A stretch of 64,000 bases of DNA from a virus. The stretch lies in the IMG/VR virus record IMGVR_UViG_3300046779_002065, positions 64,276 through 128,275 of that record; one strand, given 5' to 3'. The position numbers and the translations under genes were made by a program. The notes under the pieces were generated by a model. That model was not told where the DNA came from. It made no database searches and worked only from the letters and a program-made list of their open reading frames with translations. Below, in pieces: positions 1-25,352 of this stretch. Numbering within the stretch: position 1 is the first letter of the stretch; every line of letters begins with the position of its first letter.

Positions 1-332
1 CTCTCCAGGCGAGCTTTCTCTTCTTCGTACGTTACGGCGTCTGCACTCAGGTTGTAATTAATCCCTGACATGTCTTTCATTCCGGCAACATAGCCGACAA
101 CGGGTTCACCGTTCTCGTCCAGGTTAACCAGACTCTCCCCGTTTTCCCAGTCGCCGTGACGGTTTTTAAACTCCGGAGTGTACGCAATTGCCCACATCCG
201 CAGTGCTTGTTCTTTGTCCCCAGCAAGTGCTGGAAGTTCCATGATGTCTTTGAACAGGATAGAGTCCTTGCTGTTTGGTGCAAGAACTCTTGAAATTTCT
301 CCTGATTTGTTACGTATAATACTGCAAGCCAT
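1..332 (-). CDS. N-terminus of a large virion cargo/ejection protein, truncated by the window edge
   Basis: Not in the ORF track. ATG at 332 opens MACSIIRNKSGEISRVLAPN...YTPEFKNRHGDW...LDENGEP with no stop before base 1. It starts 8 nt after the vRNAP stop. The TPxFKxxxGDW..DENGEP motif is common in large phage polyvalent/ejection proteins. Confidence 0.75.
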   Translation of the reverse strand, partial: MACSIIRNKSGEISRVLAPNSKDSILFKDIMELPALAGDKEQALRMWAIAYTPEFKNRHGDWENGESLVNLDENGEPVVGYVAGMKDMSGINYNLSADAVTYEEEKARLE

Positions 333-340
333 TTTTAGTG

Positions 341-3300
341 TTAGTTACATTTTGTTGATTCATCAGTCTTAGACTGAAGTACTTTATCTACCGAGTCAGT
401 TTTGAAGAGCTGACTAAACTCATTAAATATTCCACGGTTCTTTGCTGCCTCATCTGCTGCATCGTTCATCTTGTGACCGCTGTGACCTTTAACCCACTCA
501 AGTTTGACACTTCCGCCGTTTGCCTCGATCATCTCGATGCGCTCGATAGCTTTCTGTACGAGGTATTGGATGTATGGTTCTTTTGCTTTCCAAGGTTTTG
601 GTTCACGCTGAAGAGATCCTTCACTGCGCTCCCAGAGAGCACCGTAGTTTACAGCACCTTTGTAGTCCTGGCGGATAACAATATGTTCGCTGCTGTTCTT
701 AAATGAATCCAGGGTCATCACCAGACCAAGCATCTCCATGGTAGGATTGGAGAACTTAGTTCCAGGAAAGAGAGCTTGAAACGACTTCATAGCTTTGCTT
801 TCCTCTGTTCCGCTCATCTTGTACATCTGACCGTTGAACTCAACAGCTGCTCCATATCCAAGTTTACCGGTCCCTTTAATGTCGCTTCCGTCTACAAAGA
901 TTTCCAGTGGAGTTGCTGGAGTAGAAAGTATTACAGGAGTAGACTGTTGAGGTTGAGTTGCAAGTTGATCCATTATTTTAGCATACTCTTCTTTTGGATT
1001 AACACCGCCTCTTGACAAAATGTGTTTCATTCCTTCTACTGATTGAAACCCATTTTCTTTAAGTTTATTGATAAACGGCAAATATTGTCTGTTTGTTAAA
1101 TCTTCAGCAACAAATACAGCATACTGTAATCTGCCTTCAATTAAATCATTTACTCTATCATTGAAAGACTCAATTTGACTTTTTCTTAATACTTGTGAAT
1201 TACTTATAAAAGTAAAAGAGGTTTTGTCTGCATACTCTTTTAATGTTGTAGAAGAATTAAATTGAGTGTTTAGTACAGCTTTACCTAAGAATGACAGATC
1301 TATTCCTGGATAGAGTTCACCCAACGCTGCGCGATTCACCCGGTCTTCATACTGACCATAGTTTTCACCGACTTGTTTTGGACCCAACACAGCATGCTGA
1401 CGTTCATGTTCCATAACAAAGGTTTCCCACTCTTCATACGATTTAAAAATATCTTCAGGGAATGCCGTTGCATAAGAATTATCACGTTGCTTCAGCGGGT
1501 TTGTCCAAGCTTTGTCGTAGTATTTCTCTCTTAACAAATTACGGTTAAGCACAATGGTGTTATCACCTCTTCTGAATTTAGCACCACCAGGTTCGTTGCT
1601 TCCTTCACGCTCAAGAGATTTTGAATCAATCACCGTGATACCTTTATAAGTACCACCTGTTTCATCAATGCTGTTTATCTCAGGTTTAGCAGTACCTCTA
1701 GCATATTCATTCAGTTTGATTGCCTCATCTACTTCAAACGCAAGTGGATTGATATTAGAGTCACCCTGACGGCTTACTAACTTATACACTGCTTTGTTTC
1801 CGACAAATGGATTGGATGTGTTTACATCTGCTATATCCGCCTGGTCAGGATTTGCTTTGTTGTAGATCTGATCAAGTAACTTAGAACCTAATCCTTTGTC
1901 ATCAACTTCACTGAGGATTAATAAATCTCCATAGGTGTTGGTAACAAACAATGGGAAGCTGTATTTCTTTTCTCCAGTTTCCTTATTTGCTTTACGAGGG
2001 AAAATCTTGTAATGCATTGCAATAGCATCCTGAACCTGTTGTTCTTTAGCATCAGCAGGTTTCATGGAGATCATTACTTCATTGTTTTCATCAAGCAAGA
2101 ACAGGTCATTGTTAGACGGATTTGTTTTACCTTCTTTGACACTTCTGTCCTGGTTTGTCTTATATTCACGTTTACGCTCTGTAAACGGATCATTGAGGTT
2201 CTTTGCTTCAGCAATAATCTTTTCACCCATTCCAGGACGAATGCTTTTGATTGCTGCATGCATAGCTGCTTCACCATACTCCGTAAACTTGCCACGGTCA
2301 TTGCTGTAGTTTAATACTTTCACAGCATTCTCATCTGGTACAGGATTGTAAATACTTACTGCTTTTTGAACAACGTCATCAATCAGTGTATCTACATCAC
2401 CCTTTTCATCTAGAATACTTGCAAACAAACTATTAAACTTGCTTTTGTATTCCGCTTGGTTCTGTGCTTTGGTTTTGCCAAACTCATCCAGTTCATTAAA
2501 CGCTTTCTCAATCTTCTTGAGTTCACCGCTGATTTCTCTAAAGTTATCAGGGTTTAGGAATGGACGCAAGCTGTAAGGTGCTGCTCCCATACCGTCTTTG
2601 ATGATTGTATAATAAAACATCTGGTACGCTGCCTCACGAACTGTCGGATCTGCATTGGTAAGAAGTTGGTCCAGTCCGTTCATGATCATGGTCTGACGAT
2701 CTTTTGACAGCTTCACTTTACTGATGCTGCGCATGATCTTTAACCCTTTGTCAGTCTTATGCGGAACAATAGATTTGATAAATGCGTTTTCAGGAAACTG
2801 AGACTTTAAACGGTTCATGATGTTAAACATGTCGTTGTTGTACCAGTAGTCTGCTTTAAGCATTTGCTGGAAACTCTTGTAACGTGCATACACTACAGGA
2901 GACTTCTCTTTGAACGAAGGATCCGCCAACGCTTTGTTGATGGTATTCTTCAGTGCATTGAGTGCTAAATAGTTCTTGATATGACCAGCTATCTTATCTG
3001 GAGTCGCTTCAAAGATGGCAGCATTTAACTGTCTGCTCAGTTCTTTGATGATAGGACTTCTCTCCAAGAACATCTTACCCAGTACTTCATCCATCAGTTC
3101 AACACTAGCTCCTAGTTTGTTATACACCGGACTTTCGCTAAAGATGTTGTTAAACCCTTTAAATGAACTTGCGTTTCTGTCTCTGCTGTAAGTTTCCATT
3201 AAACGATCTACGGCATTGAAGTCAGGTGCTAGAGATTTCTGTGCGTCGGTTAATGGAGTTAACTCAAAGCGGATTGCTTCAGCCTGTTCGTACTGCTTGA

Positions 3301-6300
3301 TATATGCTGCAAGAATTACGACGTCTTTCATCTCTTGAGTAAGGATGCTTCCGTCATTAGCAACAATCTTTAATCCCAAAGAATCTACGGTAGGATTGTC
3401 ACTGTTTGCTACGTTTGCATCGACATTGTTTACATCGAATTCAAACGTATAGTCACTTAAATCAAATGATTCAGCAAATTCAATCAGACCGAAGTTAGTT
3501 GCCTTTTCCGTCTTTCCCTTCATCTCCAACAGACGTTTAGTCAACGCGTTGTTCATGTAGGTACCCAATGCCATACCATGCTTTCTACTACGACGAACAG
3601 AACCTTCTGTCTCCGCCATGTATTTATCAATGGTGCTTTTTACACTAGGCATCAAATTAATGTAGATGCTCAGGTATGGATCAATACCCAATGATAACAT
3701 CGTAGCTGTTACTCCCATGTTGTACTGGTTAAGAGACAACACGGCAGGATAAGGTTTCTTAGCAGCATCGGCACTCATACCCAGAGAGTTTCCAATCAAT
3801 GCGTGTGCACGCTCTGCGCTTGGATCGGATTTCTCCGGAGTAAAATTCTCATAAACCTTACCGTTGATATTCCACAATGGTTCAGTTAATTCCAATCCAT
3901 GTTTAACGGCAACACTCAATGCTTTATTAAACGCGGCAAAGATTTCAATACCACGCTTTGCACTTTTGTTGGAGTCACGAACATTTGCTACAGACGTAAT
4001 CGTTGCAAAGTTGCTTTGTCCAATCGTATCTTTTTCATCACGACCCAGTGTCTCTACAGCATTCTTATAGATATCTGCGTTGGAAGATTCTTTACTGTAC
4101 AGATTATCAAAGACGTGTTTGTGTCCAAGAATCTGATTCATCGTTTTGGTAATCTCGTTCTGGATATTGGGAATTACCGGAGAACCATTTACTTTCTCGT
4201 AGCTAGCCAGGTCATCGGCAGTCACCGGCATTCCAGAGTTCTGAAGCACGTTTACTACGGCAGCTACCTTCTCCAGGAGACGAAGCTGACGCTGTAGTTC
4301 AACACTTTGTTCATCCTGCTGGGTTTCCATGACCTGTGCAAGATCTTCCAGGGACGTAAATGTCCTACCCAGTGGTGCAATCTTCTTATCGGAAAGCAAA
4401 TCACGGTAGCGGTTCTCCATAGATTTCTCTATGTCAGCCATGGATTGGTTGAAGAACTCCTGCACTTTAGGACCAAACATTGCAGAACTTTCTTTCAAGT
4501 TCTCAATCTGGTATTCCTTATCCTCGCGCATACGACGCAGCTCTTTGCTCACCAGTGGACCAAAGAACGGATCGTCCATCATGTAATGGAGATACTCAAC
4601 GAATTTTGCAGTCTTGGTATCTAACCCATAGCGGTTCTCATATTCAGAATAATCACCATAGATGTTTAGCTCACCCAATACGTTCTCGTACGTACCCATT
4701 ACACGGGCGTACAATGCATCGATATCTTTATCAGAACCAGAGAGGTAATGCACCTGTTCTGGAACAACAATCGTATTGATATAGGTCGCATCAATGTATC
4801 CTGCTACTTTCACGCGCACCATCGAACGTTTATCCTCTGTAGGAATACGTGTTGCAAAGAACTCCTCCATGGATTTCTCAATGACTCTGAGTTTGCTTGG
4901 GTTGGTAGTAGTAGGACGAGGAATCAATACTTCCACGTAATAGTCTTCGTTACCATTTTCGTCAACTGTTTTTCTAAAAGATGGGTAACGGGTTTTGTAA
5001 TTTTTGTATTTACCAGGGTTCTTACGAATCAGGTAGTCTGGAACCGGCTGATCGTTTTCATCCACAATGATTTTATAACCAAAAGAAGAACCGTGGTAGA
5101 ATTTGAAACCAGGTGCTTTTGGTTGGAACATGGTAGAGTTTGCCATGGAGAACACATAGTACTTCAACGCCTCGGTGATCCCGTTCAAGTTGGTACTGTG
5201 TACAGGCTGACCATCCACTACATCCCACATCTTGAGCATGTTTTGTGGTGCACCCTGTTTCTGCAACGACTCTTGGATTAGTTTAAAGAAGCTGGCAACA
5301 TCGATTTCTCCGTCTTGCTTTACAATACGCTCAAACTTCATCCGTGCGTTAAACGACATGTCGCTCAACAGCTTACGATACTTGATCACCAGGTCTTTTA
5401 AGTCTTGAGGAACATTTGGATCCTTTAAGTCTAAGTCTGTATCGATCAACAACTTAGGTTGAATAGAGTCCGTCACATCATGGTGATGCGCTTCCGTAGC
5501 TACCTGGTTATAAGCATAACTCATTGGAATGGTTGCCACGTTGTTTCCTAGATCCCAGTACCCGCTAGCATTTTCAAGTTCTTCTACGCTGGTTACGTAC
5601 GGAATAACGGTACCACGCTTGGAAGCACTGTTGTCAGATACTTGTCCAAGACGGTGGAATTCCATATTGTTCAAAATGCTGTGCAGCATTTCTCTTCCGT
5701 TTATAGGAACAAACTCCTCGTGAATCTTAGTGATTGTATCACGGTAAAGCTGCTCTATTGACTCATTGTTCTCGTTTACTTCTTTTCCCATGTCTAGCTG
5801 ACCTTCATAGAGATCGGCTAGTTTGTATAACTCTGCTACGCGTAAACGCGCTGCTTTGGTATTTGAATCCTTGTAATAGCTTACAGTAAAACGGTTAATG
5901 TAATGCTCACTCATCTTGAGGTAATGAATCGGATGAGCAGTTACCGTCTTCTGTGGATTTAACTGGATACCACGACCATTTAAATATTCAATGTCTTCCC
6001 AGGATACTTGTTTGTAGCGAAGGGAACGAATGATGCTGTCGGCACGTGCGTCTTTTTTACCTTCTGCATTCAAGAAGTTCAAACGGTGATTGAGTCGTTG
6101 GTATACGTGACCATCCAGGATAGAAAACTTCTCTGCATTCTCTACATCGGATTGATTATGAGACTGCGCTTTGGTGATGTCATTTTTATCAAAGAACACC
6201 GGCATCTCTTTTTCTACATCCTTTGCACCTGCAATAGTGATAACAGCGTGTCGGTAGGTAATGTTACCTGCCTGGATCAGCATGCTTGCTGCCTCAGCGT

Positions 6301-9300
6301 TTTTACCAGCTGCCGCCTGAGATTTCAAACGCTTGTAGTAATCTACCGCATTTGCAAGACCCAGTGCTTTGTCACCGTCAAATAACTGATTAACCAACAA
6401 TCGGTTAACCCAGTCATTGAAAAAGTAATCTTTTAAGAACTTATCAGTAGTAGTAATTGAGTTCGCTTTAGATACACCGTTCTCCTTGTAGTTTGTATCA
6501 AAGAATTCACTGCTGTATCCTTCTTTTGTCTTGTTGACGATTTTAGCTTTCTCCATGCTCTCCATGAAGAAATCAAACTCATCCTGAGCATACATATCTA
6601 ACTGCTCAAATAAGCTTGACATGGCAGGCAATGCTAATGCTTCTTCAAAAGATTTACCTTCTTTAGCAGCAGCAATCAGCGTCTCACGCATCTGCGTTCT
6701 GGCAGCTACGTTTTCATCACTGATCGATGTGTCTGTTGGATCAATATCGTTTAAGAAGAAGCTGTCCAATTGATGGAACTGGTATGCTCTGAGTTTAGCA
6801 CTTTCAGTATCCACCGTGTTGTCAGACAAAAGAATACCGTTATAATCTTTGTAACGGAGTTTGTTTTCATGACGTGACGCCCACTGATTACCAATACGAC
6901 TGTACTCTTGTTTAATCAGATCACTAAGACGTTTGCTGATTAAGCTGACTTTCTTGGAATTAACTTCCGTCTTTACAGCTGCATTATTGGTGGTGTACTG
7001 CTCATAGCGACCGGTTGTGTGAAACAACGTTCCGGTAGCGTCATTCTGAGACGTAATACGTTTAAAGGTTTTTAATTCTTTACCTCCGCGTTTGTACGAT
7101 TTACGATCTGTAAACAACGCAAGGTTGGAAAGATGAATACCAATCTTGTCAAGATCTGCGGCATCTGTGTTGATCGATCCGGTGTCGTCGATATTTTGAG
7201 AAAGACCACCGAGGTATCCAACTTTTAAATAATCCAGGAAGAGTTCTCCCAATCCATCCTCTGACAGATATGGGTTGTTATCAAACCAGCTTAGGAACTC
7301 AGGACCATATACCTCTAGGACAAACTGACGAAGTCCCTTTGATTGTACGTCCTGCACAACCTGCATGTTTGGAGAGTACAGGGTAAAGCGGTATATCTTG
7401 TTGCCTGTAGTGTTCATGACCACCGGCTGACCAATCGTTGAGTCATAGCGGGTGAGGTACGTCATGGAAGGTAAGAAACTGGCAACGACGCTTTTACGGG
7501 TTTTGTTATCTTTGTTTTCAAACAATGGAACAGACCCTGTGTAGCTAAACATGTACCACATAGCTTTCAGCATGCTGGTAGTCATGTATCCTTTTTCTTT
7601 AAAGATGTCGCTGTTTGCAAGCAACACTGCTCTGGCGTTGCTACCGTCAGGTAAACGATACCCGCTTTCGGTAATCAATGCCGCCAAAGAGAAATGGAAG
7701 AAGTGACGTGGAATACCAAGTCCTGCTTCTGCAGTGATTACATACAAGTCATCGGCAAACTTGTTCACCTTGGCGTCCGAGAACTCACCATTCTCCAGGT
7801 AAAACTCAGAGATGTTTTTACCATCGTCGCTTAACTCTCTGCTTAGAAGCGTTAAGTCATTCTGGATTTTCTGTTTGTCTTCTGCAGAAAGTGCTGTATA
7901 ATTATTGTTGTATCCGTCAATGATACGGTTGAGTGCCTGGAAGTTATCCTGGGACTGCACCATATCCACGGTGTTTAATTCACTCTTTATAGTGATACCA
8001 CTAATTTCAAAACTTCTGCTGGTTTTAACATCCACACGGGTAATCTCACCACTTGCTACATAGAACACGCTGTGAAACTGGTTGAACATTGCTTCAGAAC
8101 GGGTCGGTTTACCATCTACAATTCCGCAGGTGGTATCCAACATCTTCATCATCGCTTTAAGACTCTCTGCCAACTGATACACGGATTCATATTCCACCGG
8201 GTAACGATAGTTCATGCGACTACTCAAGCGACTCATATTAGACAAGTCTTCTTCCAATGTCTTAATCACTTGTCTGATCTGTGGAAGCAAGTCTTTCTTT
8301 CCAACATTTACCGTGATCTTTTTAACAGTGTCAAACAACCTGTCGGCATCTACCGGGCGACGCATGGTAACGCCAAACATGTCTTCCTGTTCATAAACCA
8401 GGAACTGGAAAATCTTACGGAACTCACGGTCTCCTTCCGAAGTACCTGTTTCCAGTAATCCAAGATCCGGATCCTTTGCACCTGATTCTTCTACATCATT
8501 GTTAGCTTTAGCAAACGCCTCTGCTGTATTCTCACCAGTAACCTGGTCTGAAGCAGCAGCCTGTTCTATCGTATCAATAACGTTCAGATTGTTGTACACC
8601 TCCAGGACCAACGCCTTCATCTGGCGGTAACTTTCTTCCGCACTTTTTGTGTAGGTTTCACCCGTCTCGTTTCCAATGTACTTGTTATCATAGTTTGGAT
8701 CACCTGTAAGGTTTGCTACCGGGAATTTCTCCCCAAGTTTCATAGAACCCAACACGTATCTAAAGTCACGGAGTTTGTTTTCATACGTCTCCCTGATCAC
8801 ACGTTCAGCACTTGGATTCTGACTGATAAAGTTCTCAATGTTATAGTATGACACCATGGTCTTTGCAATCTGATCGTACAAATCAGACGTAGTAATTCCA
8901 GCAGATTTACTACGGAGCATCTCATAGACCATCATATTGCGCAACTCCATCATCTCATCAGCGTTCATACTGTTAGGGAAACGAACAATTTTATCGTTTA
9001 GTAATCCCATGGTAGGAACTGTCTTGATCAATGCATACGCACCTTCGACACCAGTGTATTCTTTTACGGTTGCATTCTTGTAATATCCGTTATGAATACG
9101 GTCGAATGTTTTTTCGAGTTCATCCTTGTGCTTGGTAAAGAAGTCAAGCAACGACTGGATAAGGTTAAATAATTTCTGGTACCAGGTTTCTGCTTTGGTT
9201 TTCTTGGTCGCATACTTCTGGAATTTGTCTGCCATGCGTTCCTCCGCCATCAATTCAATGACTTCGGTGTTGCTCATGTGTGCAAGACCACGACGTTGCT

Positions 9301-12300
9301 TACGGAACTCCGCAATCTGAGATTCAGAGATGATTCCCATCTTCTCGTATTCACGACGTAATAAGTCAGCGCGCTCTTGTGGACTCAACAAATAACGGAA
9401 CACAGCATGGAACGCTTCATGGTAAGCAGTTCCTGGGTTGGAAAGATTCTTACTGAGGTAAATCACTTTGTCCTTGATATACCCCAACACGTTTCCTTCA
9501 GCATCCAGGTGACGGACAATCTTCTCCAAATCGTCAATTGCAATCCCTGCAGGCAGACGATCACGGATGTAATCTACCTGGCGTTGAAATTCATCCTGCT
9601 CAAAGGCAGAACGCTCCAGAGCAGTACCCAAAGAGAAGGTTCCATCAAACTCATCAATGTCATCCAATGGGGTGCTGCCTGCAGCAGGAGTATTGTTTGG
9701 TGCTACACTTGGTTTCTTTTTATCTTCAAATGAAACATTTTCCTCACCAAAGGACGGCAATACTTCATTTTTAGGCATTGTTGCTGCATCTTCCAATGCA
9801 TGCGGGAAGTTGTAATGCAGGTTAAGACGTGTCTTGTAGTGTGCTTTTACAGTGTAATAAGTATCGAGGTTACTGGATTTTGTCGTACGGTCATTAAGTG
9901 CCACAGACGGTTGCAATCCTTGTTTGGATACAAAGAGTTGTTGCATGAACTCTTTCTTGTCACCCATCATACGTTCTGCCATCTCGCGGACGGTAGCATC
10001 TTCGTTATTGAGTAAGGCGTCTATTTTCTTTTCAAAGTTCTTTAACAGTTTCTTTTCCAATGAACTGTACGCCTTTTCAATTTGCTGTTCCAGCATTTGT
10101 ACAGATTCTTTATCGCTGCCATACTTGAGTAATCCGTCCAATTGATCAAACATCTTCTCCATTCCTTCAGGGGTAGATGTATCAGCAGGAAGACCTTCTT
10201 TTTTAAAGAACTCTTCTACCGCGCTGGTGATGTCTTTAAGGACGCTGTCACCAACCAAGAAGCTTAACTTAGACGCATGCTCGTTGAAGAACTCTGCATC
10301 CGGGTGACTGTCCAATGCCGTAAACTGAACACCCAAAAACGTTTTACCGTCCTTGGTCATGTTGACAAAGAAATCAGGTTGGATCTTACGGATAACGTCA
10401 AATCCTAATATGTTGTTATTAAAGTTTCTGTAGTACGGAGTGGTTGCTGTAGTCTTATCAAATCTGCTATAAAACCCAAATAGAGACAACAACGCTTTTG
10501 CTTTGGTAGTTGCATTTGACGGTGTCTTGTCCCTCATTAATGGAACGACTGCATAGCTTCCTGTCCTGGAAGGAACAATCATGGCGTGTTTGTATCCAGT
10601 GAGCTTGCTCAAGTTAGCAATCACTTTACCAGCTTTGGGAAGTTCAAACTTCTCTACGTATTCTTTCCATTTGTATTTAACACCTTCTACCAGGATAAAT
10701 TCACCTGGTCCAAGTAATTCTACCGGCATGTAGGGTGCACCCTTTGTAGAAGACACTGCCTGGAAAAGAAGTGGTAAACGACGTTCCATCACATTACCCG
10801 GATCGTTCTCATTAATTACCGATACGGTAATACCACTCTCATGAGCAGCCAGGAACTGGTCCAGACGCTTGTCTTTTAAACGGTCTTCAAAGTTTACTTT
10901 ATCAGAAAAATCTACAGCATATACTGTATTGGTCAGTTCATAATATTTGTTGAAAAGCTCTGCAGGTATTTGGGTTTCTCCTTTGTCAAGCAATACTTGC
11001 ACTTCTGCTTTGAACTCTTTAAATCGACGTGCACCATCGCGAAGCATTTGAAGATCTTCCAGTGATGTTGGACGTATGGTGGTCTCTGTTGTACCTACGC
11101 CTCCACGCACCTGGGTGAGCGTAGCAAATAAACTCAAGTCTTCCTCATTCTCCAGGTCAAGTAAACGAGTCGTGTTATCCGGATAAACAACCACGTAGTT
11201 ATTAAAATCCATCAACGTTACAGTCTTACCGGTAGGAGAGACCATACGAATGGCAAACCCATCGGTCATACGACCACGCGTAAGAATGACCTTACCACTT
11301 TGTAATGCCATGATTTGTGCAGGCGTCTCCCGGGTCTCGATGGTACGGTTTGCTAAACTTGGGTATTGATCCGTAGCATTCTGGATCATTTGCATACGGG
11401 ATGCGTTACGCTGTGCACCCGTGCTATCAGCAATGATAGTAACCAGATTGGATGGAGAAACATTTGCACCGGAGAGTTCTTCCGTAAATGCGTCGACATC
11501 TTCCCCGATCATAACAAGTCCCGTGCGCAGTTCACCTGCGTCTACAAGAACAGTAGCACCGTCGTTTGCAATAAAACGCGTATTTGGTACATTAAGTTTT
11601 TTAGGTTTTGGATTGTTGTCAAGTACATAAAGCTCTCCTGTAGACTGGAGGTTCTCATCAGCATAGAAATATTCTTCCCCTTCACGGATCAGATCCACCA
11701 CGGTACCATCACTCAAGTACACCTCGTAGTGATTGGTTCCAAATCCTGGTAACGTACGCAAATCCACATAGCTTGCCATGTTGTTGCTATTACGAACCAG
11801 TGCAATGGCATCTTCTAACTTGCGTACAAAATCGCGTCTTACTCTTTTGTCCTCAATAGAGTTGTTTACTTTGTCCAGTGCGTTTCGTAAAATCTTTTCG
11901 CTGTTCAGTTCATTGGTTTCATTTAAACCAGCGTCCAGTACAGCACGCTCCCTGACAATCGTATCGATAGCATTCTTAACCGCACTGTGACGTTTGATCA
12001 CAGGGGATTCCAATGCTTCAGACAATTGTGCAGCAAGTTCTTTAGTACGTTTATTTTGGGTGGTCTCTTCGCTGCTTGTAATACCTAGGTGTTCCTGGAG
12101 AAGGTTTAACGCCTGGGTAAAACGATTTGCATCCAGACTGGTGTCATTTACCAGTGGATACACGGTCGCATCAATAAAACTATCCAGCTTGTTCAGTTCA
12201 AAGACTGTAGACTTCTTGGATAATTGTTTGTACAACTCGCTGTAAGCAATGATAATATTGCTCTTAGCTTCGTCGGTGAGATTAGTCAGCTTAACAATAT

Positions 12301-12400
12301 CGCGAACTGAATTTTCGAGATTGCGATATTTTTCGGGATTAGTACGAAGTGCTTGTTGCAGCGCGGTGCGCAGCACTTTAGAATCTATAGTGCAGGACAT
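341..12400 (-). CDS. Giant virion-packaged two-barrel RNA polymerase (crAss-type) with zincin motifs and a C-terminal RNase H domain
   Basis: 4019 aa. RIPT motif followed by catalytic GSDKDID (DxDxD, 4718-4732). HEAFH at 9407-9421 and HERQH at 1394-1408. RNase HI motifs at ~435-910. Lies among giant cargo genes as in Crassvirales. Confidence 0.88.
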   Translation of the reverse strand: MSCTIDSKVLRTALQQALRTNPEKYRNLENSVRDIVKLTNLTDEAKSNIIIAYSELYKQLSKKSTVFELNKLDSFIDATVYPLVNDTSLDANRFTQALNLLQEHLGITSSEETTQNKRTKELAAQLSEALESPVIKRHSAVKNAIDTIVRERAVLDAGLNETNELNSEKILRNALDKVNNSIEDKRVRRDFVRKLEDAIALVRNSNNMASYVDLRTLPGFGTNHYEVYLSDGTVVDLIREGEEYFYADENLQSTGELYVLDNNPKPKKLNVPNTRFIANDGATVLVDAGELRTGLVMIGEDVDAFTEELSGANVSPSNLVTIIADSTGAQRNASRMQMIQNATDQYPSLANRTIETRETPAQIMALQSGKVILTRGRMTDGFAIRMVSPTGKTVTLMDFNNYVVVYPDNTTRLLDLENEEDLSLFATLTQVRGGVGTTETTIRPTSLEDLQMLRDGARRFKEFKAEVQVLLDKGETQIPAELFNKYYELTNTVYAVDFSDKVNFEDRLKDKRLDQFLAAHESGITVSVINENDPGNVMERRLPLLFQAVSSTKGAPYMPVELLGPGEFILVEGVKYKWKEYVEKFELPKAGKVIANLSKLTGYKHAMIVPSRTGSYAVVPLMRDKTPSNATTKAKALLSLFGFYSRFDKTTATTPYYRNFNNNILGFDVIRKIQPDFFVNMTKDGKTFLGVQFTALDSHPDAEFFNEHASKLSFLVGDSVLKDITSAVEEFFKKEGLPADTSTPEGMEKMFDQLDGLLKYGSDKESVQMLEQQIEKAYSSLEKKLLKNFEKKIDALLNNEDATVREMAERMMGDKKEFMQQLFVSKQGLQPSVALNDRTTKSSNLDTYYTVKAHYKTRLNLHYNFPHALEDAATMPKNEVLPSFGEENVSFEDKKKPSVAPNNTPAAGSTPLDDIDEFDGTFSLGTALERSAFEQDEFQRQVDYIRDRLPAGIAIDDLEKIVRHLDAEGNVLGYIKDKVIYLSKNLSNPGTAYHEAFHAVFRYLLSPQERADLLRREYEKMGIISESQIAEFRKQRRGLAHMSNTEVIELMAEERMADKFQKYATKKTKAETWYQKLFNLIQSLLDFFTKHKDELEKTFDRIHNGYYKNATVKEYTGVEGAYALIKTVPTMGLLNDKIVRFPNSMNADEMMELRNMMVYEMLRSKSAGITTSDLYDQIAKTMVSYYNIENFISQNPSAERVIRETYENKLRDFRYVLGSMKLGEKFPVANLTGDPNYDNKYIGNETGETYTKSAEESYRQMKALVLEVYNNLNVIDTIEQAAASDQVTGENTAEAFAKANNDVEESGAKDPDLGLLETGTSEGDREFRKIFQFLVYEQEDMFGVTMRRPVDADRLFDTVKKITVNVGKKDLLPQIRQVIKTLEEDLSNMSRLSSRMNYRYPVEYESVYQLAESLKAMMKMLDTTCGIVDGKPTRSEAMFNQFHSVFYVASGEITRVDVKTSRSFEISGITIKSELNTVDMVQSQDNFQALNRIIDGYNNNYTALSAEDKQKIQNDLTLLSRELSDDGKNISEFYLENGEFSDAKVNKFADDLYVITAEAGLGIPRHFFHFSLAALITESGYRLPDGSNARAVLLANSDIFKEKGYMTTSMLKAMWYMFSYTGSVPLFENKDNKTRKSVVASFLPSMTYLTRYDSTIGQPVVMNTTGNKIYRFTLYSPNMQVVQDVQSKGLRQFVLEVYGPEFLSWFDNNPYLSEDGLGELFLDYLKVGYLGGLSQNIDDTGSINTDAADLDKIGIHLSNLALFTDRKSYKRGGKELKTFKRITSQNDATGTLFHTTGRYEQYTTNNAAVKTEVNSKKVSLISKRLSDLIKQEYSRIGNQWASRHENKLRYKDYNGILLSDNTVDTESAKLRAYQFHQLDSFFLNDIDPTDTSISDENVAARTQMRETLIAAAKEGKSFEEALALPAMSSLFEQLDMYAQDEFDFFMESMEKAKIVNKTKEGYSSEFFDTNYKENGVSKANSITTTDKFLKDYFFNDWVNRLLVNQLFDGDKALGLANAVDYYKRLKSQAAAGKNAEAASMLIQAGNITYRHAVITIAGAKDVEKEMPVFFDKNDITKAQSHNQSDVENAEKFSILDGHVYQRLNHRLNFLNAEGKKDARADSIIRSLRYKQVSWEDIEYLNGRGIQLNPQKTVTAHPIHYLKMSEHYINRFTVSYYKDSNTKAARLRVAELYKLADLYEGQLDMGKEVNENNESIEQLYRDTITKIHEEFVPINGREMLHSILNNMEFHRLGQVSDNSASKRGTVIPYVTSVEELENASGYWDLGNNVATIPMSYAYNQVATEAHHHDVTDSIQPKLLIDTDLDLKDPNVPQDLKDLVIKYRKLLSDMSFNARMKFERIVKQDGEIDVASFFKLIQESLQKQGAPQNMLKMWDVVDGQPVHSTNLNGITEALKYYVFSMANSTMFQPKAPGFKFYHGSSFGYKIIVDENDQPVPDYLIRKNPGKYKNYKTRYPSFRKTVDENGNEDYYVEVLIPRPTTTNPSKLRVIEKSMEEFFATRIPTEDKRSMVRVKVAGYIDATYINTIVVPEQVHYLSGSDKDIDALYARVMGTYENVLGELNIYGDYSEYENRYGLDTKTAKFVEYLHYMMDDPFFGPLVSKELRRMREDKEYQIENLKESSAMFGPKVQEFFNQSMADIEKSMENRYRDLLSDKKIAPLGRTFTSLEDLAQVMETQQDEQSVELQRQLRLLEKVAAVVNVLQNSGMPVTADDLASYEKVNGSPVIPNIQNEITKTMNQILGHKHVFDNLYSKESSNADIYKNAVETLGRDEKDTIGQSNFATITSVANVRDSNKSAKRGIEIFAAFNKALSVAVKHGLELTEPLWNINGKVYENFTPEKSDPSAERAHALIGNSLGMSADAAKKPYPAVLSLNQYNMGVTATMLSLGIDPYLSIYINLMPSVKSTIDKYMAETEGSVRRSRKHGMALGTYMNNALTKRLLEMKGKTEKATNFGLIEFAESFDLSDYTFEFDVNNVDANVANSDNPTVDSLGLKIVANDGSILTQEMKDVVILAAYIKQYEQAEAIRFELTPLTDAQKSLAPDFNAVDRLMETYSRDRNASSFKGFNNIFSESPVYNKLGASVELMDEVLGKMFLERSPIIKELSRQLNAAIFEATPDKIAGHIKNYLALNALKNTINKALADPSFKEKSPVVYARYKSFQQMLKADYWYNNDMFNIMNRLKSQFPENAFIKSIVPHKTDKGLKIMRSISKVKLSKDRQTMIMNGLDQLLTNADPTVREAAYQMFYYTIIKDGMGAAPYSLRPFLNPDNFREISGELKKIEKAFNELDEFGKTKAQNQAEYKSKFNSLFASILDEKGDVDTLIDDVVQKAVSIYNPVPDENAVKVLNYSNDRGKFTEYGEAAMHAAIKSIRPGMGEKIIAEAKNLNDPFTERKREYKTNQDRSVKEGKTNPSNNDLFLLDENNEVMISMKPADAKEQQVQDAIAMHYKIFPRKANKETGEKKYSFPLFVTNTYGDLLILSEVDDKGLGSKLLDQIYNKANPDQADIADVNTSNPFVGNKAVYKLVSRQGDSNINPLAFEVDEAIKLNEYARGTAKPEINSIDETGGTYKGITVIDSKSLEREGSNEPGGAKFRRGDNTIVLNRNLLREKYYDKAWTNPLKQRDNSYATAFPEDIFKSYEEWETFVMEHERQHAVLGPKQVGENYGQYEDRVNRAALGELYPGIDLSFLGKAVLNTQFNSSTTLKEYADKTSFTFISNSQVLRKSQIESFNDRVNDLIEGRLQYAVFVAEDLTNRQYLPFINKLKENGFQSVEGMKHILSRGGVNPKEEYAKIMDQLATQPQQSTPVILSTPATPLEIFVDGSDIKGTGKLGYGAAVEFNGQMYKMSGTEESKAMKSFQALFPGTKFSNPTMEMLGLVMTLDSFKNSSEHIVIRQDYKGAVNYGALWERSEGSLQREPKPWKAKEPYIQYLVQKAIERIEMIEANGGSVKLEWVKGHSGHKMNDAADEAAKNRGIFNEFSQLFKTDSVDKVLQSKTDESTKCN

Positions 12401-12419: not shown

Positions 12420-15400
12420 CTACAGTTTGCAGAAAACAGCTTCACCCAATGAATCAAACGGATTAGTATCCTCAGTATTTGACGCATTAGTAGAGATGGT
12501 TCCTACTTCAAATTTACGACTTTTTGTAGACTTTTTTGTAGATTTTTTTGTAGTCTCTACAGATCTTTCTACATAATTCACTAAAGGAGTGAACTCATCT
12601 ATGGCGGTCACTAAATCTGTTACGAGTGAATCCAACGTGCTGGTGTACTGTTCAACAGGGGTAACAGGCGTTACGTTCTTGTTTTCCGTTTGTACACGAG
12701 TCTCCGCTTTGGCGTCTTCAAATTGAAGTTCTAGTTGTTCGACGCTCTCCTGGAGAGAAGTCGGTTCACTTTTAGCTTTGCTATTACGCGGAGCTTTTTT
12801 TCCGTCGGCAACACCCGCATCATCACTAGATTGCTTACTAGCAGCTTTTTGCTTTCGCTTTGCTTTTCTGGATTTTTTGTCTTTAACAGTGGGGTCATTA
12901 GGTTTGTTATCAGGTGGGTACTTACTATTTAATTTGTTGAGGTCATAGTTTATATCGTCTTCAAGTTTATCCAACAATGGACCTTGAACACTGGATTCAT
13001 TTTTCAAAGTTAATGCATTGAGAAAAGAATTACGCAATGCTTCCACTTCTTCAGGAGTCAAATCCTCACGGAATAAAAACTTTAAATACGCATCAGCCGG
13101 AAATGTATCACTGATTTGTTTAACAGCATTAGCTTCTTTGGAATTGTTTTCCGCGTCAAGAAGTTCTTTTGCTAACGCCTCTTGTTCTTCTGCAGCAATT
13201 GCGTCATGCATTTCCTGTAATGAAGTGCTGACAGCATTGATGTATTGCTTGAATATACCATTACGTCCGACACGCTGTCCAGCTTTGGTCTGGTATGCAA
13301 GACCAGTGATCTCCCCGGTAGATTCGCTGCGTACAATGGTAAAATCTTTTCCGTCAATCTTGACAGTACTGCGATCATCGCTGGTAAACTCTACCGTAAA
13401 CACCTTGTCATCAACAGCAACAACCTCTCCATCATCAGTGCTTGCTTCAGGAGCTAGACTCAAACCAGGATATTCTTCCAGTAAACTGTCTTCCGGACCT
13501 AATGTAAGTTCTAAACCGCTGTCCAGTTTGACAAAATATAACTCAAACTCATCCTGGGTCTTTTGAATAATACCAGCTTCACCGTTATACATGACACGTT
13601 TACCTTCCTGCCACTTCAACTTTTGCTTCTCGTCCCGGATAGCATTCTCTTTTTCATCCTCTAATTGTTGCACTTCATTGTTTACAGCAGGTGCATCATT
13701 TACTGAATTAATGGAAGGACTATCTCCAGGAGCAGCCTCTGTAGGATCTCCGGGTTCAGGTATCAATGTAAACCACTGCTTACCATCTTGTTTTACTTTT
13801 GTATAGCTTACTTCACCGTTGTCTCCAGCTGCTATTTCTTCAATGACGTCACCGGTTTCCGGGTTAAACACTATAAACACATACCCATCAGGATCTTCAT
13901 CTAGTTCTGCAGTATTGCCGTCTTCAGTTTTAAACTGTCGACCGACAAGGTTTTTCAGTTTGCGAGCTTCTTTGAGAATAGTCTCATCAACAACAGATCC
14001 TTTGGTGTTTGATGTAAACAGTTCAGTTTCAAACTTGACAGCAAAATTGAAACAATCATTTTCGGTGATGTCCAATTCTCCTTCATGTGTTACCACTGGT
14101 TCTGGAACCCTGCTGTCTACAACACGTTGGAACGAATAGCGGTTCCCGGCAATCTGTTTAAAAATATAATGCTTGTTAACAAATGATACAACTTGTACAT
14201 CCATTCCCCGGTCCAGCATCATCTGCAGGTTCTCCGGTTCCAGTGCTTTGGGAGACGTGGTTATATTTCCTGTTTCATCTTTGTTTACGTTTTCAGAATC
14301 AGTAGTGTCTGCTGATTTCTTTGCTTTGTCGTTTTCAGGATTCTCAGTTTTCTTTTTCTTATCCTCCAGTGCTTTGGAAATCTTTCCTTTAAGTTCTGCC
14401 AGGTATGCAAACGCCTGGTTTGTAATCATAGGAGAGTCCGCAAATCGTTCTGCTTCTTTGATTAACTTTTCATTCTCATTGAGCAATCTTCCAAACACAG
14501 GATCCATCAACGCAAGGTGTCGGATCATCTGCACCATGTTGTTTGCGTGAGCACCAATACGAGCAGCCATTGCTGCATCCATTGTCTTGTTAAAAGCAAT
14601 AGGATCATTGAGCATGTTCAGTGCGTCAACCATCTTACGGTTTTCTTCACCCAACTCCATGTAGTCAACAATATCCTGCATCGCTGCATCAATGTCTTCC
14701 TGCTTAACGTTGGTGTTGATACGACCTTCCGCATTCTTGGAAACTAGGAAACGCTTGAATGCATCAGATGCTTTGGTTCTTTCTACGGAACTCTTCTGGC
14801 GAAGTGCTTCATTGTTATATGTGTAAGTGCTCGTCTCATCTTTTGATTGAGTCACTGTATACCCAATAGCTTCTGTCCAGTCATTAAGTGCTTTACGTTG
14901 CTCTTTCTTATGTTTAATCAGACGCTCTGTCTCTTCAGACTTCACTTCCTGTTGCTCAAGACTTCTGATTTCGTTATCCAAAATCATGCTCTCGTTCTTC
15001 AGCTCTGTAAGATTGGTCAGCTTATCAAACCCCGATGACACTGACTGTCCAATACTGTCGTACTGACTGATTTTGCTTTGAATACCGGCACGACGTTTTA
15101 CTGCGTCCTGCGCTTTATTTTCATGGAATGATACGGTCTCAATAGCGTCAAGCAATGAGGCACGTGCAATCTCAGATACAAGTTTCTTCTCCGGATCTTT
15201 GATGTATTTACCCAAGTCCAGGAAGTTTGCATACTTCTTCATATAGTGATCATAGGTCTCGCTGTAGCGTTCTATGTCAGAGGCAATCCTGGAGGTAAAT
15301 TCTGCAGGAGAGTTGTACCCTGCGTCTTTTGCTGTAAATCCAAATGCTTCTTTAAATGCTTGGTTATCAAATCCTTCCCCGTACGCGCGCACGGTGTCTA

Positions 15401-20041: not shown

Positions 20042-20101
20042 GGGTACACTTATAATTTACAAAAAAAACTTTAAAAATTTATAAACTTCTAAAGTTTAAA
20101 C

Positions 20102-23100: not shown

Positions 23101-23308
23101 GCTCGATGTTTCCATCGTTGTTGATATCACCTAATATAGTTTCACCACCCTCAGCTTCAATGTTTGCCATGTGGCGAGGTACAGCACCCATAGTATTTCT
23201 AGCTGCATTTGGGTCTTCTGAATTTGACGGAGACCATGGACGGTGGGTAGTTAACGAGTAATCGCGTTGATCACCGGTACGAGGGGTTTTCTTGATACGG
23301 ACTTTCAT
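20102..23308 (-). CDS. crAss-type internal virion protein (EAEGGE / H-x-x-GG N-terminal domain)
   Basis: 1068 aa. N-terminal NIEAEGGE...GKRHTQGGV...IFSD pattern typical of crAss-like structural proteins. Repeated xxxGG motifs. Confidence 0.6.
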   Translation of the reverse strand: MKVRIKKTPRTGDQRDYSLTTHRPWSPSNSEDPNAARNTMGAVPRHMANIEAEGGETILGDINNDGNIEHMTITGKRHTQGGVPLNVPGGSFIFSDTKKMKIKDPEVLKHFGMGGKAGGYTPAQIAKQYQLNDFMKKVNDPQTDPFTRRTAERMLNNNMQKLSELAAYQEGMKGKQPPAVSEQMLPDGGAQMSQAAMPPQMNPEMMGQTDPAMMDELEMAYGGMTKMQTGGGSPLLVPGFQFYVGSQKAKIKSIDDNWIDDNYVHLEKPINGVSKIPLNDFKKHFGSSSPYKSVVGTEKEYLPSIPGGPPIPFANNNFLNEVSYKKIQPMFFGSTPAKDLNHKAALLGVENNNRLQFAPGTEFVAGSQKYKVVDAMLEGAAGEPVIKVTDSAGKTQYLNKKLITSYYKKNQLGLVNKDGSVVPFTQAGTTTEANASMGATRTVYDASGNPLQISINSETPAGYSENKTERKQPNIQKATGNVRQQTSGTPPRLKAQQSKERIYESDEEYLKWRLEQLQDKAMGGELFQDGGAYEQPKYKYDAVQRKMVPVFADGGGTGEKEYVNSYKTKDGKKRKEVTKGNTVTIYDEKNEVVSSHKIENDYQTYSAKDVEDWKKNGIDVTLPESLASNFGSDMTEGRQGARGDSGTYGTQNYWNDKNSGDFKKRHARFVAANPNFNPKKDSGVFQNWYNDDIYNQATKAGYSPEEATGYVNKFGFIADSKDPNAKDGLFGRYTWSRPTINIGKKPPGPQTVYRCPDCQPVQIPADQAVSASDFTSLSACQTACAGKTNTTTPEQKPQDNDFWIQHKLGIANAMNMDRFYGEPAMFQMNGATYDPQLEEYSAKNASLQSDASLAMSNINASADPTTARANIAAVAGQLGQAGLNEIANIQNRNVNTTNAVAADRAHMRNDVNGKNTAMRKQFYDETMNYGQNLVNSSNKQRTMITNSFNNAFQGLQNRNMMRAIYPMYDINSVTGANAFIDGEDFTEGTFQTQPTASTGQLKDIIEKYKSQLMSSGMSPDEATKQAAAFAKDEMNRNHQSSNISRRAYLQQNPQAALAGMTGGYTPYE

Positions 23309-23383
23309 AATAAACTTTAAAAGTTTAAACTTGTTTTGCAGGGGTACTAATAGAATTTACGGATAAATTGTTAGGATTCCTAA

Positions 23384-25351: not shown

Positions 25352-25352
25352 G

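Follow-up and report, generated by a model that had tools for sequence, protein, structure and literature searches.

An optional RNase HI cassette in a giant crAss-type virion RNA polymerase polyprotein of an uncultured freshwater phage

Virion RNA polymerases and the giant protein P0001

When a phage genome enters the cell, virion RNA polymerases are the enzymes that act on it first; how they handle template structure and release their transcripts is only partly known, even for phage N4. On single-stranded templates, the N4 virion RNA polymerase (vRNAP) generates RNA:DNA hybrids, with EcoSSB mediating template recycling (PMC4496689), in agreement with a premise of the initial annotation of this locus, that the N4 enzyme needs host SSB. 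Its companion premise, that the vRNAP of the crAss-like phage phi14:2 transcribes ssDNA, is borne out by the gp66 preprint. This enzyme, gp66 (6VR4), is a protein of 2180 aa without an RNase H, and the available text of the preprint makes no mention of one. According to the same source, crAss-like RNA polymerases carry Ile (or Val) at the fourth position of the DxDxD motif, and orthologues of gp65 contain a zincin-like protease and are in some cases fused to the polymerase. In crAss001, RNA polymerase-associated proteins were identified as virion cargo by mass spectrometry (PMC10172136).

The polyvalent proteins (Iyer et al., 2017; PMC5512222) are similarly giant, are predicted to be co-injected with DNA, and carry variable enzymatic modules. 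The fusion partners described there for N4-like RNA polymerases are MPTase, lysozyme, PBECR RNase, and ART, with RNase H not among them; the available text contains neither 'RNaseH' nor 'crass' (0 occurrences each), and its mentions of 'RNase' name no RNase H. A phage RNase H has been described in Goslar (Chimalliviridae), where depletion of Rhc lowers the transcription of some genes, an effect read as R-loop resolution (10.64898/2026.10.01.755736). We found no literature description of a virion polymerase, crAss-type or N4-type, that carries an RNase H, and the available text of PMC7886860 mentions no such domain, although the domain maps of Yutin et al. (2018) could already show one.

The DNA analyzed here, termed the window, is a stretch of 64,000 nucleotides from the 128,275-bp metagenomic genome of an uncultured freshwater crAss-like phage (IMG/VR record IMGVR_UViG_3300046779_002065). 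At one end, it encodes the giant protein P0001, with the following features in its larger part:

341..12400, minus strand: giant ORF P0001 (4019 aa), predicted crAss-type virion RNA polymerase polyprotein with a C-terminal accessory cassette, in a single open frame
1670..12400, minus strand: conserved body (aa 1-3577), common to the closest relatives without RNase H (BLASTP)
9407..9421, minus strand: first HExxH motif (HEAFH, aa 994-998), in a putative zincin-like module of the N-terminal part
4238..5968, minus strand: RNA polymerase core (aa 2145-2721), matched by a custom core HMM
4718..4732, minus strand: catalytic DxDxD motif (DKDID, aa 2557-2561), in the same frame as the RNase HI domain

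The frame is uninterrupted, with zero internal stops across 4019 aa, so that the DKDID motif and the RNase HI domain lie within one ORF, as the initial annotation had proposed. Several comparisons identify the body of P0001 by sequence as a crAss-type virion RNA polymerase. A tblastn search with the core matched 29 records, all 29 from crAss-like phages and annotated as RNA polymerase catalytic subunit (best E 4e-14), and a profile built from the P0001 core and eight relatives (A4) retrieved chain A of 6VR4 from the PDB at E 4.1e-38. This match places P0001 and gp66 in the same polymerase family; it spans gp66 residues 1048-1792, including GSDFDIDK, and aligns DKDID with DFDID, so that both proteins have Ile at the fourth position. 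Only the profile succeeded: identity to gp66 is too low for a single-sequence match, and phmmer of the core (aa 2100-2800) gave 0 matches in the PDB at E<=10. The pattern [GS][SFT]D.D[IVLG]D is present in the core of 62 of the 72 crAss-type giants that carry an RNase H (see below). Neither PHROG 2206 nor a custom N4-type HMM, both representing the N4 vRNAP family, matched P0001. Unlike gp66, P0001 has a putative zincin-like N-terminal part fused to the polymerase and an RNase HI cassette at its C-terminal side. Approximately 200 aa around HEAFH are conserved in 40 of 66 other RNase-H giants (BLASTP), and this region has no Pfam match.

The P0001 gene is situated downstream of the TerL-portal-capsid block and adjoins other giant cargo genes, an arrangement shared with the gene for gp66; it belongs to the late structural and cargo block and lies outside any replication block. 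The five giant proteins encoded at 341-28469 contain 0-0.37% Cys, whereas most of the remaining window proteins have 0.59-5.5%, and P0001 itself has only three Cys residues, at positions 3, 1425, and 4018. This composition fits translocated cargo. No PHROG family could be assigned to the five neighboring giant proteins at 12420-28469. By analogy with described crAss-like phages, P0001 is most likely packaged and injected into the host.

A type-1 RNase H domain

The initial annotation had placed an RNase HI domain at nt 435-910, at the C-terminus of the polymerase ORF, with all four acidic residues in order. The domain and its catalytic residues are located as follows:

416..928, minus strand: RNase HI domain (aa 3825-3995; Pfam envelope aa 3832-3988, nt 437-907), delineated by Pfam, PHROG, phmmer, and AF2
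890..892, minus strand: D3837, equivalent to E. coli D10; Asp in 92/93 RNase-H giants
734..736, minus strand: E3889, equivalent to E. coli E48; Glu in 92/93
665..667, minus strand: D3912, equivalent to E. coli D70; Asp in 93/93
482..484, minus strand: H3973, equivalent to E. coli H124; His in 89/93
452..454, minus strand: D3983, equivalent to E. coli D134; Asp in 92/93

Pfam family PF00075 (RNase_H) matches the whole of P0001 with 41.5 bits against a gathering cut-off of 25.8, and the last 219 aa alone with 47.4 bits, the same score as in a six-frame search of the genome; such a match goes well beyond chance. PHROG 531 ('RNase H') is the sole PHROG match of P0001 (E 6e-18), and phmmer against PDB sequences matched E. 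coli RNase HI at 2.4e-6. Alignment to the E. coli enzyme pairs D10, E48, D70, H124, and D134 with D3837, E3889, D3912, H3973, and D3983, as verified by re-reading the codons; the four acidic residues are therefore present in the order first described, together with the catalytic-site His. The motifs IFVDGS, SNPTMEM, IRQDY, WVKGHSG, and MNDAADEAA start at aa 3834, 3884, 3909, 3969, and 3978, respectively, and occupy nt 443-901, inside the range originally given. The assignment to the C-terminal region also stands, but the domain is not at the very end of the protein, as a conserved tail peptide of 24 aa (...KCN) comes after it. The complete DEDD tetrad is retained in 92 of the 93 RNase-H giants, and the tetrad and His are invariant in the clade alignments A1 and A2.

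An AF2 model of the domain (pLDDT 90.9, pTM 0.82) has the topology b1-b2-b3-(extra helix)-aA-b4-aB/C-aD-b5-aE, in which a five-stranded mixed sheet with flanking helices constitutes the RNase H fold. The top Foldseek match of the model is E. coli RNase HI (6.5e-10), and a VIA comparison with 2ehg (RNase HI) aligned 133 residues with a Z score of 15.1 and an rmsd of 2.5. Across cellular type-1 RNases H, including E. coli rnhA, fold and catalytic residues are the same (Z 14-15, rmsd 2.5-3.1 over 125-133 residues). In contrast to the free-standing E. coli enzyme, to which it is ~25% identical, the P0001 domain is embedded in a 4019-aa phage protein, and an additional helix (model residues 69-77) separates its strand 3 from helix A. 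Residues 80-100 of the E. coli enzyme, the basic protrusion or handle with which E. coli-type enzymes bind the DNA strand, align to the P0001 domain only with gaps, and the site of the protrusion holds a clade-specific, invariant Trp/Lys-rich loop, LW..S.GS.QR..KPW. By family and by modeled fold, residues 3825-3995 are thus confirmed as a complete type-1 RNase H (RNase HI).

RuvC, transposase, PIWI, and exonuclease folds were considered and rejected: in sequence and structure comparisons alike, the top matches were without exception type-1 RNases H, and P0001 retains the His and Asn of this family. Retroviral RT is likewise a polymerase with a C-terminal type-1 RNase H, and the RNase H of HIV-1 RT matches the model at Z 13.7-14.0; however, its RNase H is obligatory, whereas P0001 is a predicted DNA-templated, two-barrel RNA polymerase in which the RNase H is optional. 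A retroelement origin was rejected because P0001 has no RT domain in Pfam. Goslar Rhc, likened here by description only, differs in that it is a separate protein, not carried in the virion or joined to an RNA polymerase, and acts as a DNA polymerase subunit inside the phage nucleus.

The cassette slot and its distribution

The RNase HI domain is preceded by two further modules and followed by the tail peptide:

1226..1669, minus strand: cassette module 1 (aa 3578-3725), with a second HExxH motif (HERQH, nt 1394-1408); absent from P0198 and P0199
929..1225, minus strand: cassette module 2 and Pro/Thr-rich linker (aa 3726-3824); no Pfam match
344..415, minus strand: conserved tail peptide (aa 3996-4019), ending in ...KCN, with Cys4018 at nt 347-349

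In BLASTP comparisons, P0001 aligns to two close relatives over aa 1-3577 (P0198) and aa 1-3569 (P0199), at which point the alignments end; both relatives possess the body and the tail peptide, and aa 3578-3995 are absent. The tail peptide is also retained in P0002-P0004, and a Cys occurs within the last 12 residues in 77 of 94 giants. By these alignments, the RNase HI occupies a variable slot between a conserved body and a Cys-bearing tail and is not integral to the polymerase. Such a slot is where crAss-like phages would swap cargo enzymes, and recognizing it aids in reading other cassettes. P0198, which lacks the domain, is sister to the RNase-H-bearing P0002 (SH-aLRT 100%), a placement by which the RNase HI is read as lost in the sister lineage of P0002.

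Nothing in Pfam matches aa 3578-3830, even at E<=10. The AF2 model of module 1 (pLDDT 79.8, from nine alignment rows) gave weak fold matches, nearly all to zincins, the best being Z 7.0 to 1oz9 and a Foldseek E of 0.16 to selecase, with no Foldseek match at E<=0.001; leads in the ESM Atlas fell below the 0.9 mark ('Zinc-binding metallo-peptidase', 0.88; LPD23, 0.86). Module 1 is probably a small zincin-fold metallohydrolase, a reading that remains a lead because the fold matches are weak. A stretch resembling module 2 and the linker precedes an RNase H in P0078, a protein of 496 aa.

The relatives carry further modules, namely NADAR, 2OG-FeII_Oxy_2 (AlkB-like), HD_4, PIF1-like helicase, Kinase-PolyVal, ART-PolyVal, LPD23, and SprT-like. 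NADAR adjoins the RNase H in all four NADAR-bearing relatives scanned (P0006, P0035, P0050, and P0034), the last of which also contains the PIF1-like helicase, and the 2OG-Fe(II) oxygenase adjoins it in P0018; these neighbors are modules that act on DNA, in keeping with a hybrid-clearing role. P0001 has no Pfam module with a PolyVal name. Nevertheless, it resembles the polyvalent proteins in joining a polymerase, two HExxH modules, and an RNase H in one polypeptide with an architecture that varies among homologues, and RNase HI would join the list of modules found on such injected proteins.

In order to gauge how widespread the fusion is, related sequences were surveyed at several levels. Of 80 related phage records in IMG/VR, just 2 contain any RNase H, both times within a giant ORF, and among the 21 that are at least 90% complete just 1 does; precomputed PF00075 matches occur in 4 of 107 core homologues. 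A separate IMG/VR search with a single 586-aa C-terminal query found no relative. By contrast, the same RNase H clade was recovered in 93 giant proteins in a survey built on metagenomic gene calls, of which custom HMMs assigned 72 a crAss-type core, 8 an N4-type core, and 13 neither. The fusion first noticed in this one phage is recurrent among crAss-type giants, yet rare among related records. The RNase H lies downstream of the core in 65 of the 72 crAss-type giants and upstream in 7. Two proteins, P0035 and P0053, match PHROG 2206 'virion RNA polymerase' (E 3e-168 and 5e-159); phmmer of P0035 against the PDB returned NADAR relatives only and did not match the N4 vRNAP, and its identity was settled by PHROGs. 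Among 42 representatives from a search across all lengths at E<=1e-30, 27 are at least 2000 aa long, and several of the short ones are fragments of giants.

These searches delineate a distinct RNase H clade that, as sampled, is almost confined to giant phage proteins. In the RNase H tree, which was built in 'quick' mode from 176 columns and has several long branches, the starred branches force at least three changes of the N4 label. As judged from this tree and the survey, the RNase HI is an optional element that passes horizontally among giant proteins, even from one kind of virion polymerase to another, unrelated kind. The low frequency of the cassette and its loss from a sister lineage indicate that the polymerase does not need RNase HI, and its presence on the unrelated N4-type polymerases suggests a stronger link to injected polymerases, or injected cargo, generally.

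Proposed function and alternatives

On this evidence, we consider it highly probable that the RNase HI cassette of P0001 is real, competent in catalysis, and borne as cargo. With rather less assurance, we favor the reading that this optional and horizontally mobile enzyme is injected and serves to clear RNA:DNA hybrids at an early stage of infection. The initial annotation had suggested such clearance as one possible role, along with primer processing and attack on hybrid-based defenses. The domain would be packed into the particle together with the polymerase, ejected into the cell ahead of or alongside the DNA, and refolded there, and it would hydrolyze the RNA strand of RNA:DNA hybrids in the first minutes of infection. 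The likeliest substrates would be persistent hybrids or R-loops left by the virion polymerase on the incoming phage DNA, because the templates of both polymerase types are single-stranded or melted and the N4 enzyme leaves its transcript annealed. Given a real and competent cassette, we place slightly less than even confidence in the phage's own transcription hybrids as the main substrate. Once they are removed, the template could be used again and the DNA would be open to later transcription and replication; the phage would also rely less on the SSB or RNase H of its host.

Several considerations temper this proposal. As RNase H destroys the RNA of a hybrid instead of releasing it, templates would be recycled and R-loops removed, but transcripts would not be rescued; acting on nascent annealed transcripts, the enzyme would destroy early mRNA, so that the benefit is not self-evident. 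Hosts normally supply their own RNase HI. The 78 of 80 related records without an RNase H imply that hybrid clearing is no general need of these polymerases, and the 13 of 93 giants in which the HMMs detect no polymerase core suggest that the link may be to injected cargo generally and not to transcription. The apparent repeated recruitment of RNase HI onto two unrelated polymerases nonetheless raises a testable question, namely whether pre-early transcription makes hybrids that need removal, and by whom.

A bolder version, which we regard as possible but doubtful, is that the crAss-type two-barrel and N4-type T7-like polymerases have repeatedly captured one RNase HI cassette as a portable 'hybrid remover', part of a template-care kit. 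On this view, the two enzymes share the habit of transcribing melted or single-stranded DNA to which the RNA product stays annealed. Pre-early transcription would then need neither SSB nor RNase H from the host, and the RNase HI, together with neighboring NADAR, AlkB-like, and helicase modules, would make up the injected kit for the naked incoming genome. In a still bolder variant, the same activity would disarm RNA-guided or reverse-transcriptase-based immunity upon entry.

The most serious alternative to clearance of transcription hybrids, although an unlikely one in our estimation, is a counter-defense effector, an injected RNase H that attacks hybrid-containing host immune intermediates before the phage genome is exposed. 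Candidate targets would be retron msDNA and its precursors, the cDNA of defense RTs, R-loops of CRISPR effectors, and Argonaute guide-target duplexes. An optional, patchy, and horizontally traded cassette follows the usual pattern of counter-defense genes, and its company in the relatives (Kinase-PolyVal, ART-PolyVal, LPD23, NADAR, HD_4, and SprT-like modules) also fits this alternative, but P0001 itself lacks any PolyVal module. Polyvalent proteins have been proposed to counter restriction and CRISPR at entry (PMC5512222), and retrons require host RNase H1 to function (PMC8989520). However, no defense system was linked to the cassette in this analysis. Since hosts usually own an RNase HI, hybrid-based defenses must already tolerate such activity, and capture by two kinds of virion polymerase is more simply explained by a role linked to transcription.

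We consider a role in replication improbable. Here, the RNase H would trim transcripts of the virion polymerase into origin primers, or remove RNA primers, and fusion to the polymerase would merely secure its early supply. Apart from this domain, PF00075 has no match in the 128,275-bp genome, in which no other primer-removing nuclease is recognizable by Pfam (no match for the 5'-3' exonuclease PF02739 or for a family A or family B DNA polymerase), although Pfam negatives in divergent phage genomes are weak evidence. Primer removal by a jumbo-phage RNase H1 and primers made by RNA polymerases have been discussed (PMC7824862) and were shown for Goslar Rhc (preprint 10.64898/2026.10.01.755736). 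On the other hand, replication proceeds without a phage-encoded RNase H in 78 of 80 related records, bulk primer removal would be poorly served by a few injected copies, and the location of the gene among late structural and cargo genes is not that of a replication gene.

Host shut-off or takeover, in which the enzyme would degrade RNA primers or R-loops of the host (such as those at stalled transcription complexes or at the origins of plasmids or the chromosome) and so perturb host replication in favor of the phage, appears very improbable: its sole basis is the general notion that polyvalent proteins bring in enzymes that modify the host, cells both tolerate and need RNase HI, such that extra copies are not obviously harmful, and the sequence holds no hint of targeting to host structures.

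Weaker still is the notion that the domain has no nuclease function and is decaying, purely structural, or an assembly chimera, for which the sole argument is that the window is a metagenomic assembly, and against which stand the catalytic residues, all kept in P0001 and in 92 of 93 giants. The initial annotation had raised a stop codon or misassembly between polymerase and domain as a possible objection, and neither was found. A chimera was rejected on two grounds. An 81,043-nt Logan contig from run X1 covers 341-2400 of the window, crossing the junction, with 0 differences; as X1 may be the source sample, this contig is not independent support. Relatives from independent assemblies of several sources (P0002-P0004) have the same collinear architecture. 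Contigs from X3, X4, and X6 cover parts of 341-2400, with the stretch 962-1168 uncovered; one X3 contig ends at nt 910, and upstream of its RNase H the X3 strain may have another cassette, although a single contig end proves nothing. One listed RNA run contains next to none of the window's words and says nothing on expression. Within the RNase HI domain, 17 of the 19 differences between the window and the contigs of two other samples, X3 and X4, fall at third codon positions, which argues against decay. For practical use, the clade may also offer compact RNase H domains with an apparent tolerance of unfolding and refolding.

Identity of the RNase HI domain and of its polymerase

P0001, the virion RNA polymerase encoded on the minus strand at 341-12400, is an uninterrupted frame of 4019 codons and the largest ORF in the window. 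As the initial annotation proposed, it carries an RNase HI in frame with a DxDxD polymerase: the RNase HI motifs lie at residues 3834, 3884, 3909, 3969, and 3978 (window nt 443-901), and DKDID occupies residues 2557-2561 of the same frame. The claim of a C-terminal fusion holds for the presence of the domain, not for its placement at the very end of the protein, as a conserved 24-aa tail comes after it. PF00075 (RNase_H, Pfam) covers residues 3832-3988 with 41.5 bits for the whole protein and 47.4 bits for the last 219 residues (curated cut-off, 25.8 bits), and PHROG 531 ('RNase H') matches P0001 with an E of 6e-18. Among PDB sequences, phmmer matched E. coli RNase HI and mutants of it and nothing else (best E 2.4e-6); the alignment pairs the following residues:

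D3837 with E. coli D10
E3889 with E. coli E48
D3912 with E. coli D70
H3973 with E. coli H124
D3983 with E. coli D134

An AlphaFold2 model of the last 219 residues, computed from a 44-row alignment, has a mean pLDDT of 90.9 and a pTM of 0.82, with strands and helices ordered as in RNase HI. The best Foldseek matches of this model in the PDB were E. coli RNase HI throughout (E 6.5e-10, probability 1.00), and superposition with VIA-align gave a Z of 15.1 for an archaeal RNase HI (rmsd 2.5 Å over 133 residues) and 14.2 for E. coli RNase HI. Motifs, Pfam and PHROG 531 matches, the phmmer alignment, the model, and both structural comparisons thus confirm the RNase HI; every testable feature places the domain among ordinary type-1 RNases H, with predicted activity.

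The polymerase core, used as a single sequence, had no match in the PDB. A profile of the window's core and eight relatives matched 6VR4, the structure of gp66 (the virion RNA polymerase of Cellulophaga phage phi14:2), with an E of 4.1e-38 over gp66 residues 1048-1792, with GSDFDVDK aligned on GSDFDIDK. In a tblastn search of 50,697 phage records, residues 1001-3000 of P0001 matched 29, all crAss-like, at residues ∼2218-2680 with 23-27% identity (best E 4e-14); where annotated, these are called RNAP catalytic subunits. By motif and profile, P0001 is assigned to the crAss-type virion polymerase family. The record, a virus genome of 128,275 bp, has direct terminal repeats and is present in runs labelled freshwater metagenome. 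Upstream of P0001 in the direction of transcription are encoded:

terminase (PHROG 6681, E 8e-57)
portal (PHROG 6547, E 3e-92)
major head protein (PHROG 11589)
a virion protein of 1802 aa
five giant proteins, no family matched

With its counterparts in gut crAss-like and Flavobacterium phages, the terminase shares 23-25% identity. By analogy with its homologues, P0001 is a candidate for packaging in the virion: gp66 and its neighbours are virion proteins according to the gp66 preprint, and mass spectrometry found gp47, gp49, and gp50 of crAss001 in virions (PMC10172136). The first HExxH of P0001, HEAFH at residue 994 (window 9407-9421), lies ∼1150 aa upstream of the polymerase core. The layout of P0001 suggests that a gp65-like zincin protein and a gp66-like polymerase of the phi14:2 kind are fused into one polyprotein; fusions of the gp65/gp66 type occur in some phages, as the same preprint describes.

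A variable slot ahead of the C-terminal tail

The RNase HI occupies part of a slot (residues 3578-3995) situated between the conserved body and the Cys-bearing tail. The slot contains, in order:

window 1226-1669, minus strand: a 148-aa module with HERQH (1394-1408), no Pfam family
window 929-1225, minus strand: a ∼100-aa stretch, no family matched, with a Pro/Thr-rich linker ahead of the RNase H
RNase H, the last element of the slot

P0198 and P0199, the nearest relatives that do not carry the RNase H, align with P0001 from residue 1 to residues 3577 and 3569, respectively, continue into a short unrelated stretch, and end in the same C-terminal tail peptide as the RNase-H bearers (...KSKEEQSKDCNKGN.). 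The cassette is placed just upstream of a tail that is kept with or without it. In a quick tree of the conserved body (ten rows, four outgroups), P0198 is sister to the RNase-H-bearing P0002 with 100% SH-aLRT, within a 100% clade of five to which P0199 is basal. In either case, gain or loss of the cassette happened inside a narrow group.

The contents of the slot vary among relatives: P0002 has one more module, P0006 a NADAR domain, and P0018 a 2OG-Fe(II) oxygenase. A model of the HERQH module (pLDDT 79.8, nine rows) is weakly similar to small metallohydrolases of the zincin fold, of the YbeY and mini-zincin types (best Z 7.0, Foldseek E 0.16), and the module could act as a nuclease or as the peptidase that releases the RNase H. 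In P0054 and P0058 it immediately precedes the RNase H; P0002-P0004 and P0025 have it farther upstream. The ∼100-aa stretch resembles the region ahead of the RNase H in the 496-aa P0078, in a different context. Contigs from X3, a sequencing run of another sample, match the RNase H (341-910) and the body (1426-2400) with 90-99% likeness and leave the stretch between uncovered; one of them carries on past nt 910 with sequence unlike the window's. Strains may differ in what the cassette contains (window 910-1425).

An RNase HI cassette on two virion polymerase families

The fusion exists among homologues and is rare. PF00075 was found in four of the 107 giant proteins retrieved by a polymerase-core search, namely P0001 and its relatives P0002-P0004. 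When whole records were searched for the best 80 of 118 confirmed IMG/VR loci encoding a core relative, two contained PF00075, both within ORFs (3928 and 4245 aa); for records at least 90% complete in this set, the count was 1 of 21. Fusion-less relatives among these best 80 loci thus have no separate RNase H and lack the activity altogether. The domain in P0001 is the sole PF00075 match in the window's genome.

Searches with the domain itself gave a wider distribution. A word-indexed search confined to proteins of 2210-7034 aa returned 66 other giants, and an exhaustive HMMER search (1.84 billion entries, all lengths) returned 216 representatives at E ≤ 0.001 and 42 at E ≤ 1e-30. At least 2000 aa long are 27 of these 42; several of the 15 shorter proteins share the Cys tail at their end or begin within a giant's sequence, and are for that reason fragments. 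Lower-ranking matches are the first to include free-standing RNases H (150-280 aa).

We classified the 93 RNase-H giants of at least 2000 aa with our own HMMs for the crAss-type core and the N4-type polymerase part: 72 have the former (including two with partial N4-seed matches in non-polymerase modules, counted as crAss-type), 8 the latter, and 13 neither. PHROG 2206 ('virion RNA polymerase') confirmed the N4 type for P0035 (E 3e-168) and P0053 (E 5e-159). Of the 72 crAss-type giants, 65 have the RNase H on the C-terminal side of the core and 7 on the N-terminal side; all eight N4-type giants have it N-terminal to the polymerase part. These carriers (P0035, P0053, P0031-P0033, P0051, P0089, and P0119; 3715-5178 aa) hold it in their N-terminal half, flanked in P0035 by a DprA-like module and NADAR.

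The RNase H of the window shares 47-87% identity with that of 63 of the 66 other giants. Polymerase cores outside the immediate clade share 21-40% identity. A quick tree of 86 RNase H domains (72 crAss-type, 8 N4-type, 6 free-standing outgroups), with several long branches, requires four changes of the N4 label, of which the starred branches force at least three; shuffled labels require 7.7 on average, and none of 500 shuffles was as low. These comparisons establish the predicted RNase HI as an optional, mobile cassette that recurs on two unrelated virion polymerases.

Two observations bear on selection. All four carboxylates are retained by 92 of 93 giants and by all 94 shorter proteins, and the His by 89 of 93 giants. 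Between the window and a related strain (X3 contigs and one contig of X4, another such run), 17 of 19 listed differences at nt 341-910 are in third codon positions.

Such an architecture agrees with the polyvalent-protein concept, which already covers N4-like virion polymerases fused to metallopeptidase, lysozyme, PBECR RNase, or ART (PMC5512222); P0001 differs in joining a crAss-type polymerase to RNase HI. In the literature searched, we found no description of RNase HI as a polyvalent module, of RNase HI on crAss-type polymerases, or of its exchange between crAss-type and N4-type polymerases.

Possible roles of the RNase HI and the cysteine pattern of the cargo proteins

By sequence and model, an intact predicted RNase HI is sited in a cargo polymerase. 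We favour a role in which this putative enzyme would clear the polymerase's own hybrids and R-loops from the incoming genome, because capture of the same cassette by both polymerase types is most simply explained by a hybrid problem that they share. Modules adjoining the RNase H in relatives include NADAR, a 2OG-Fe(II) oxygenase, a PIF1-like helicase, and a DprA-like module. The four NADAR-bearing relatives scanned with Pfam (P0006, P0034, P0035, and P0050) all have NADAR immediately beside the RNase H, on one side or the other. Such neighbours, too, act on DNA, not on host proteins, which fits a 'template-care' kit. Against hybrid clearing, however, the cassette is rare, hosts possess their own RNase HI, cutting would destroy annealed transcripts, 13 RNase-H giants show no polymerase, and other neighbours (Kinase-PolyVal, ART-PolyVal, LPD23, and HD_4) are classic conflict modules. 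For these reasons an anti-defence role of the injected RNase H remains a serious rival to hybrid clearing, if an unlikely one. Pfam found no family A or family B DNA polymerase and no 5'-3' exonuclease N-domain (E ≤ 0.001) in the whole 128,275-bp genome; its replication genes either have diverged strongly or belong to a different kind. A part in replication would suit a genome that, by Pfam, shows no further primer-removing nuclease, but is improbable given that 78 of the best 80 of 118 loci do without any RNase H.

Cysteine occurs just three times in P0001 (positions 3, 1425, and 4018). The residues near the protein ends, and those facing them in the adjoining genes, lie at:

window 12429-12431: Cys1632 of the upstream 1634-aa protein, which ends ...FCKL
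window 12392-12394: Cys3 of P0001
window 347-349: Cys4018 of P0001
window 324-326: Cys3 of the downstream ORF 3..332, which starts MAC

The facing termini of three consecutive cargo genes thus bear Cys (...FCKL / MSC...KCN / MAC...). Of 94 giants, a Cys falls within the final 12 residues in 77 and within the initial 8 in 41, compared with a chance expectation of ∼1% from Cys content; the pattern was not seen in N4-type giants. The five giant proteins that follow the 1802-aa virion protein (window 341-28469), for which PHROGs gave no family except for the RNase H domain, contain 0-0.37% Cys, and most other window proteins 0.6-5.5%. Low Cys content fits proteins that have to unfold for passage through the tail.
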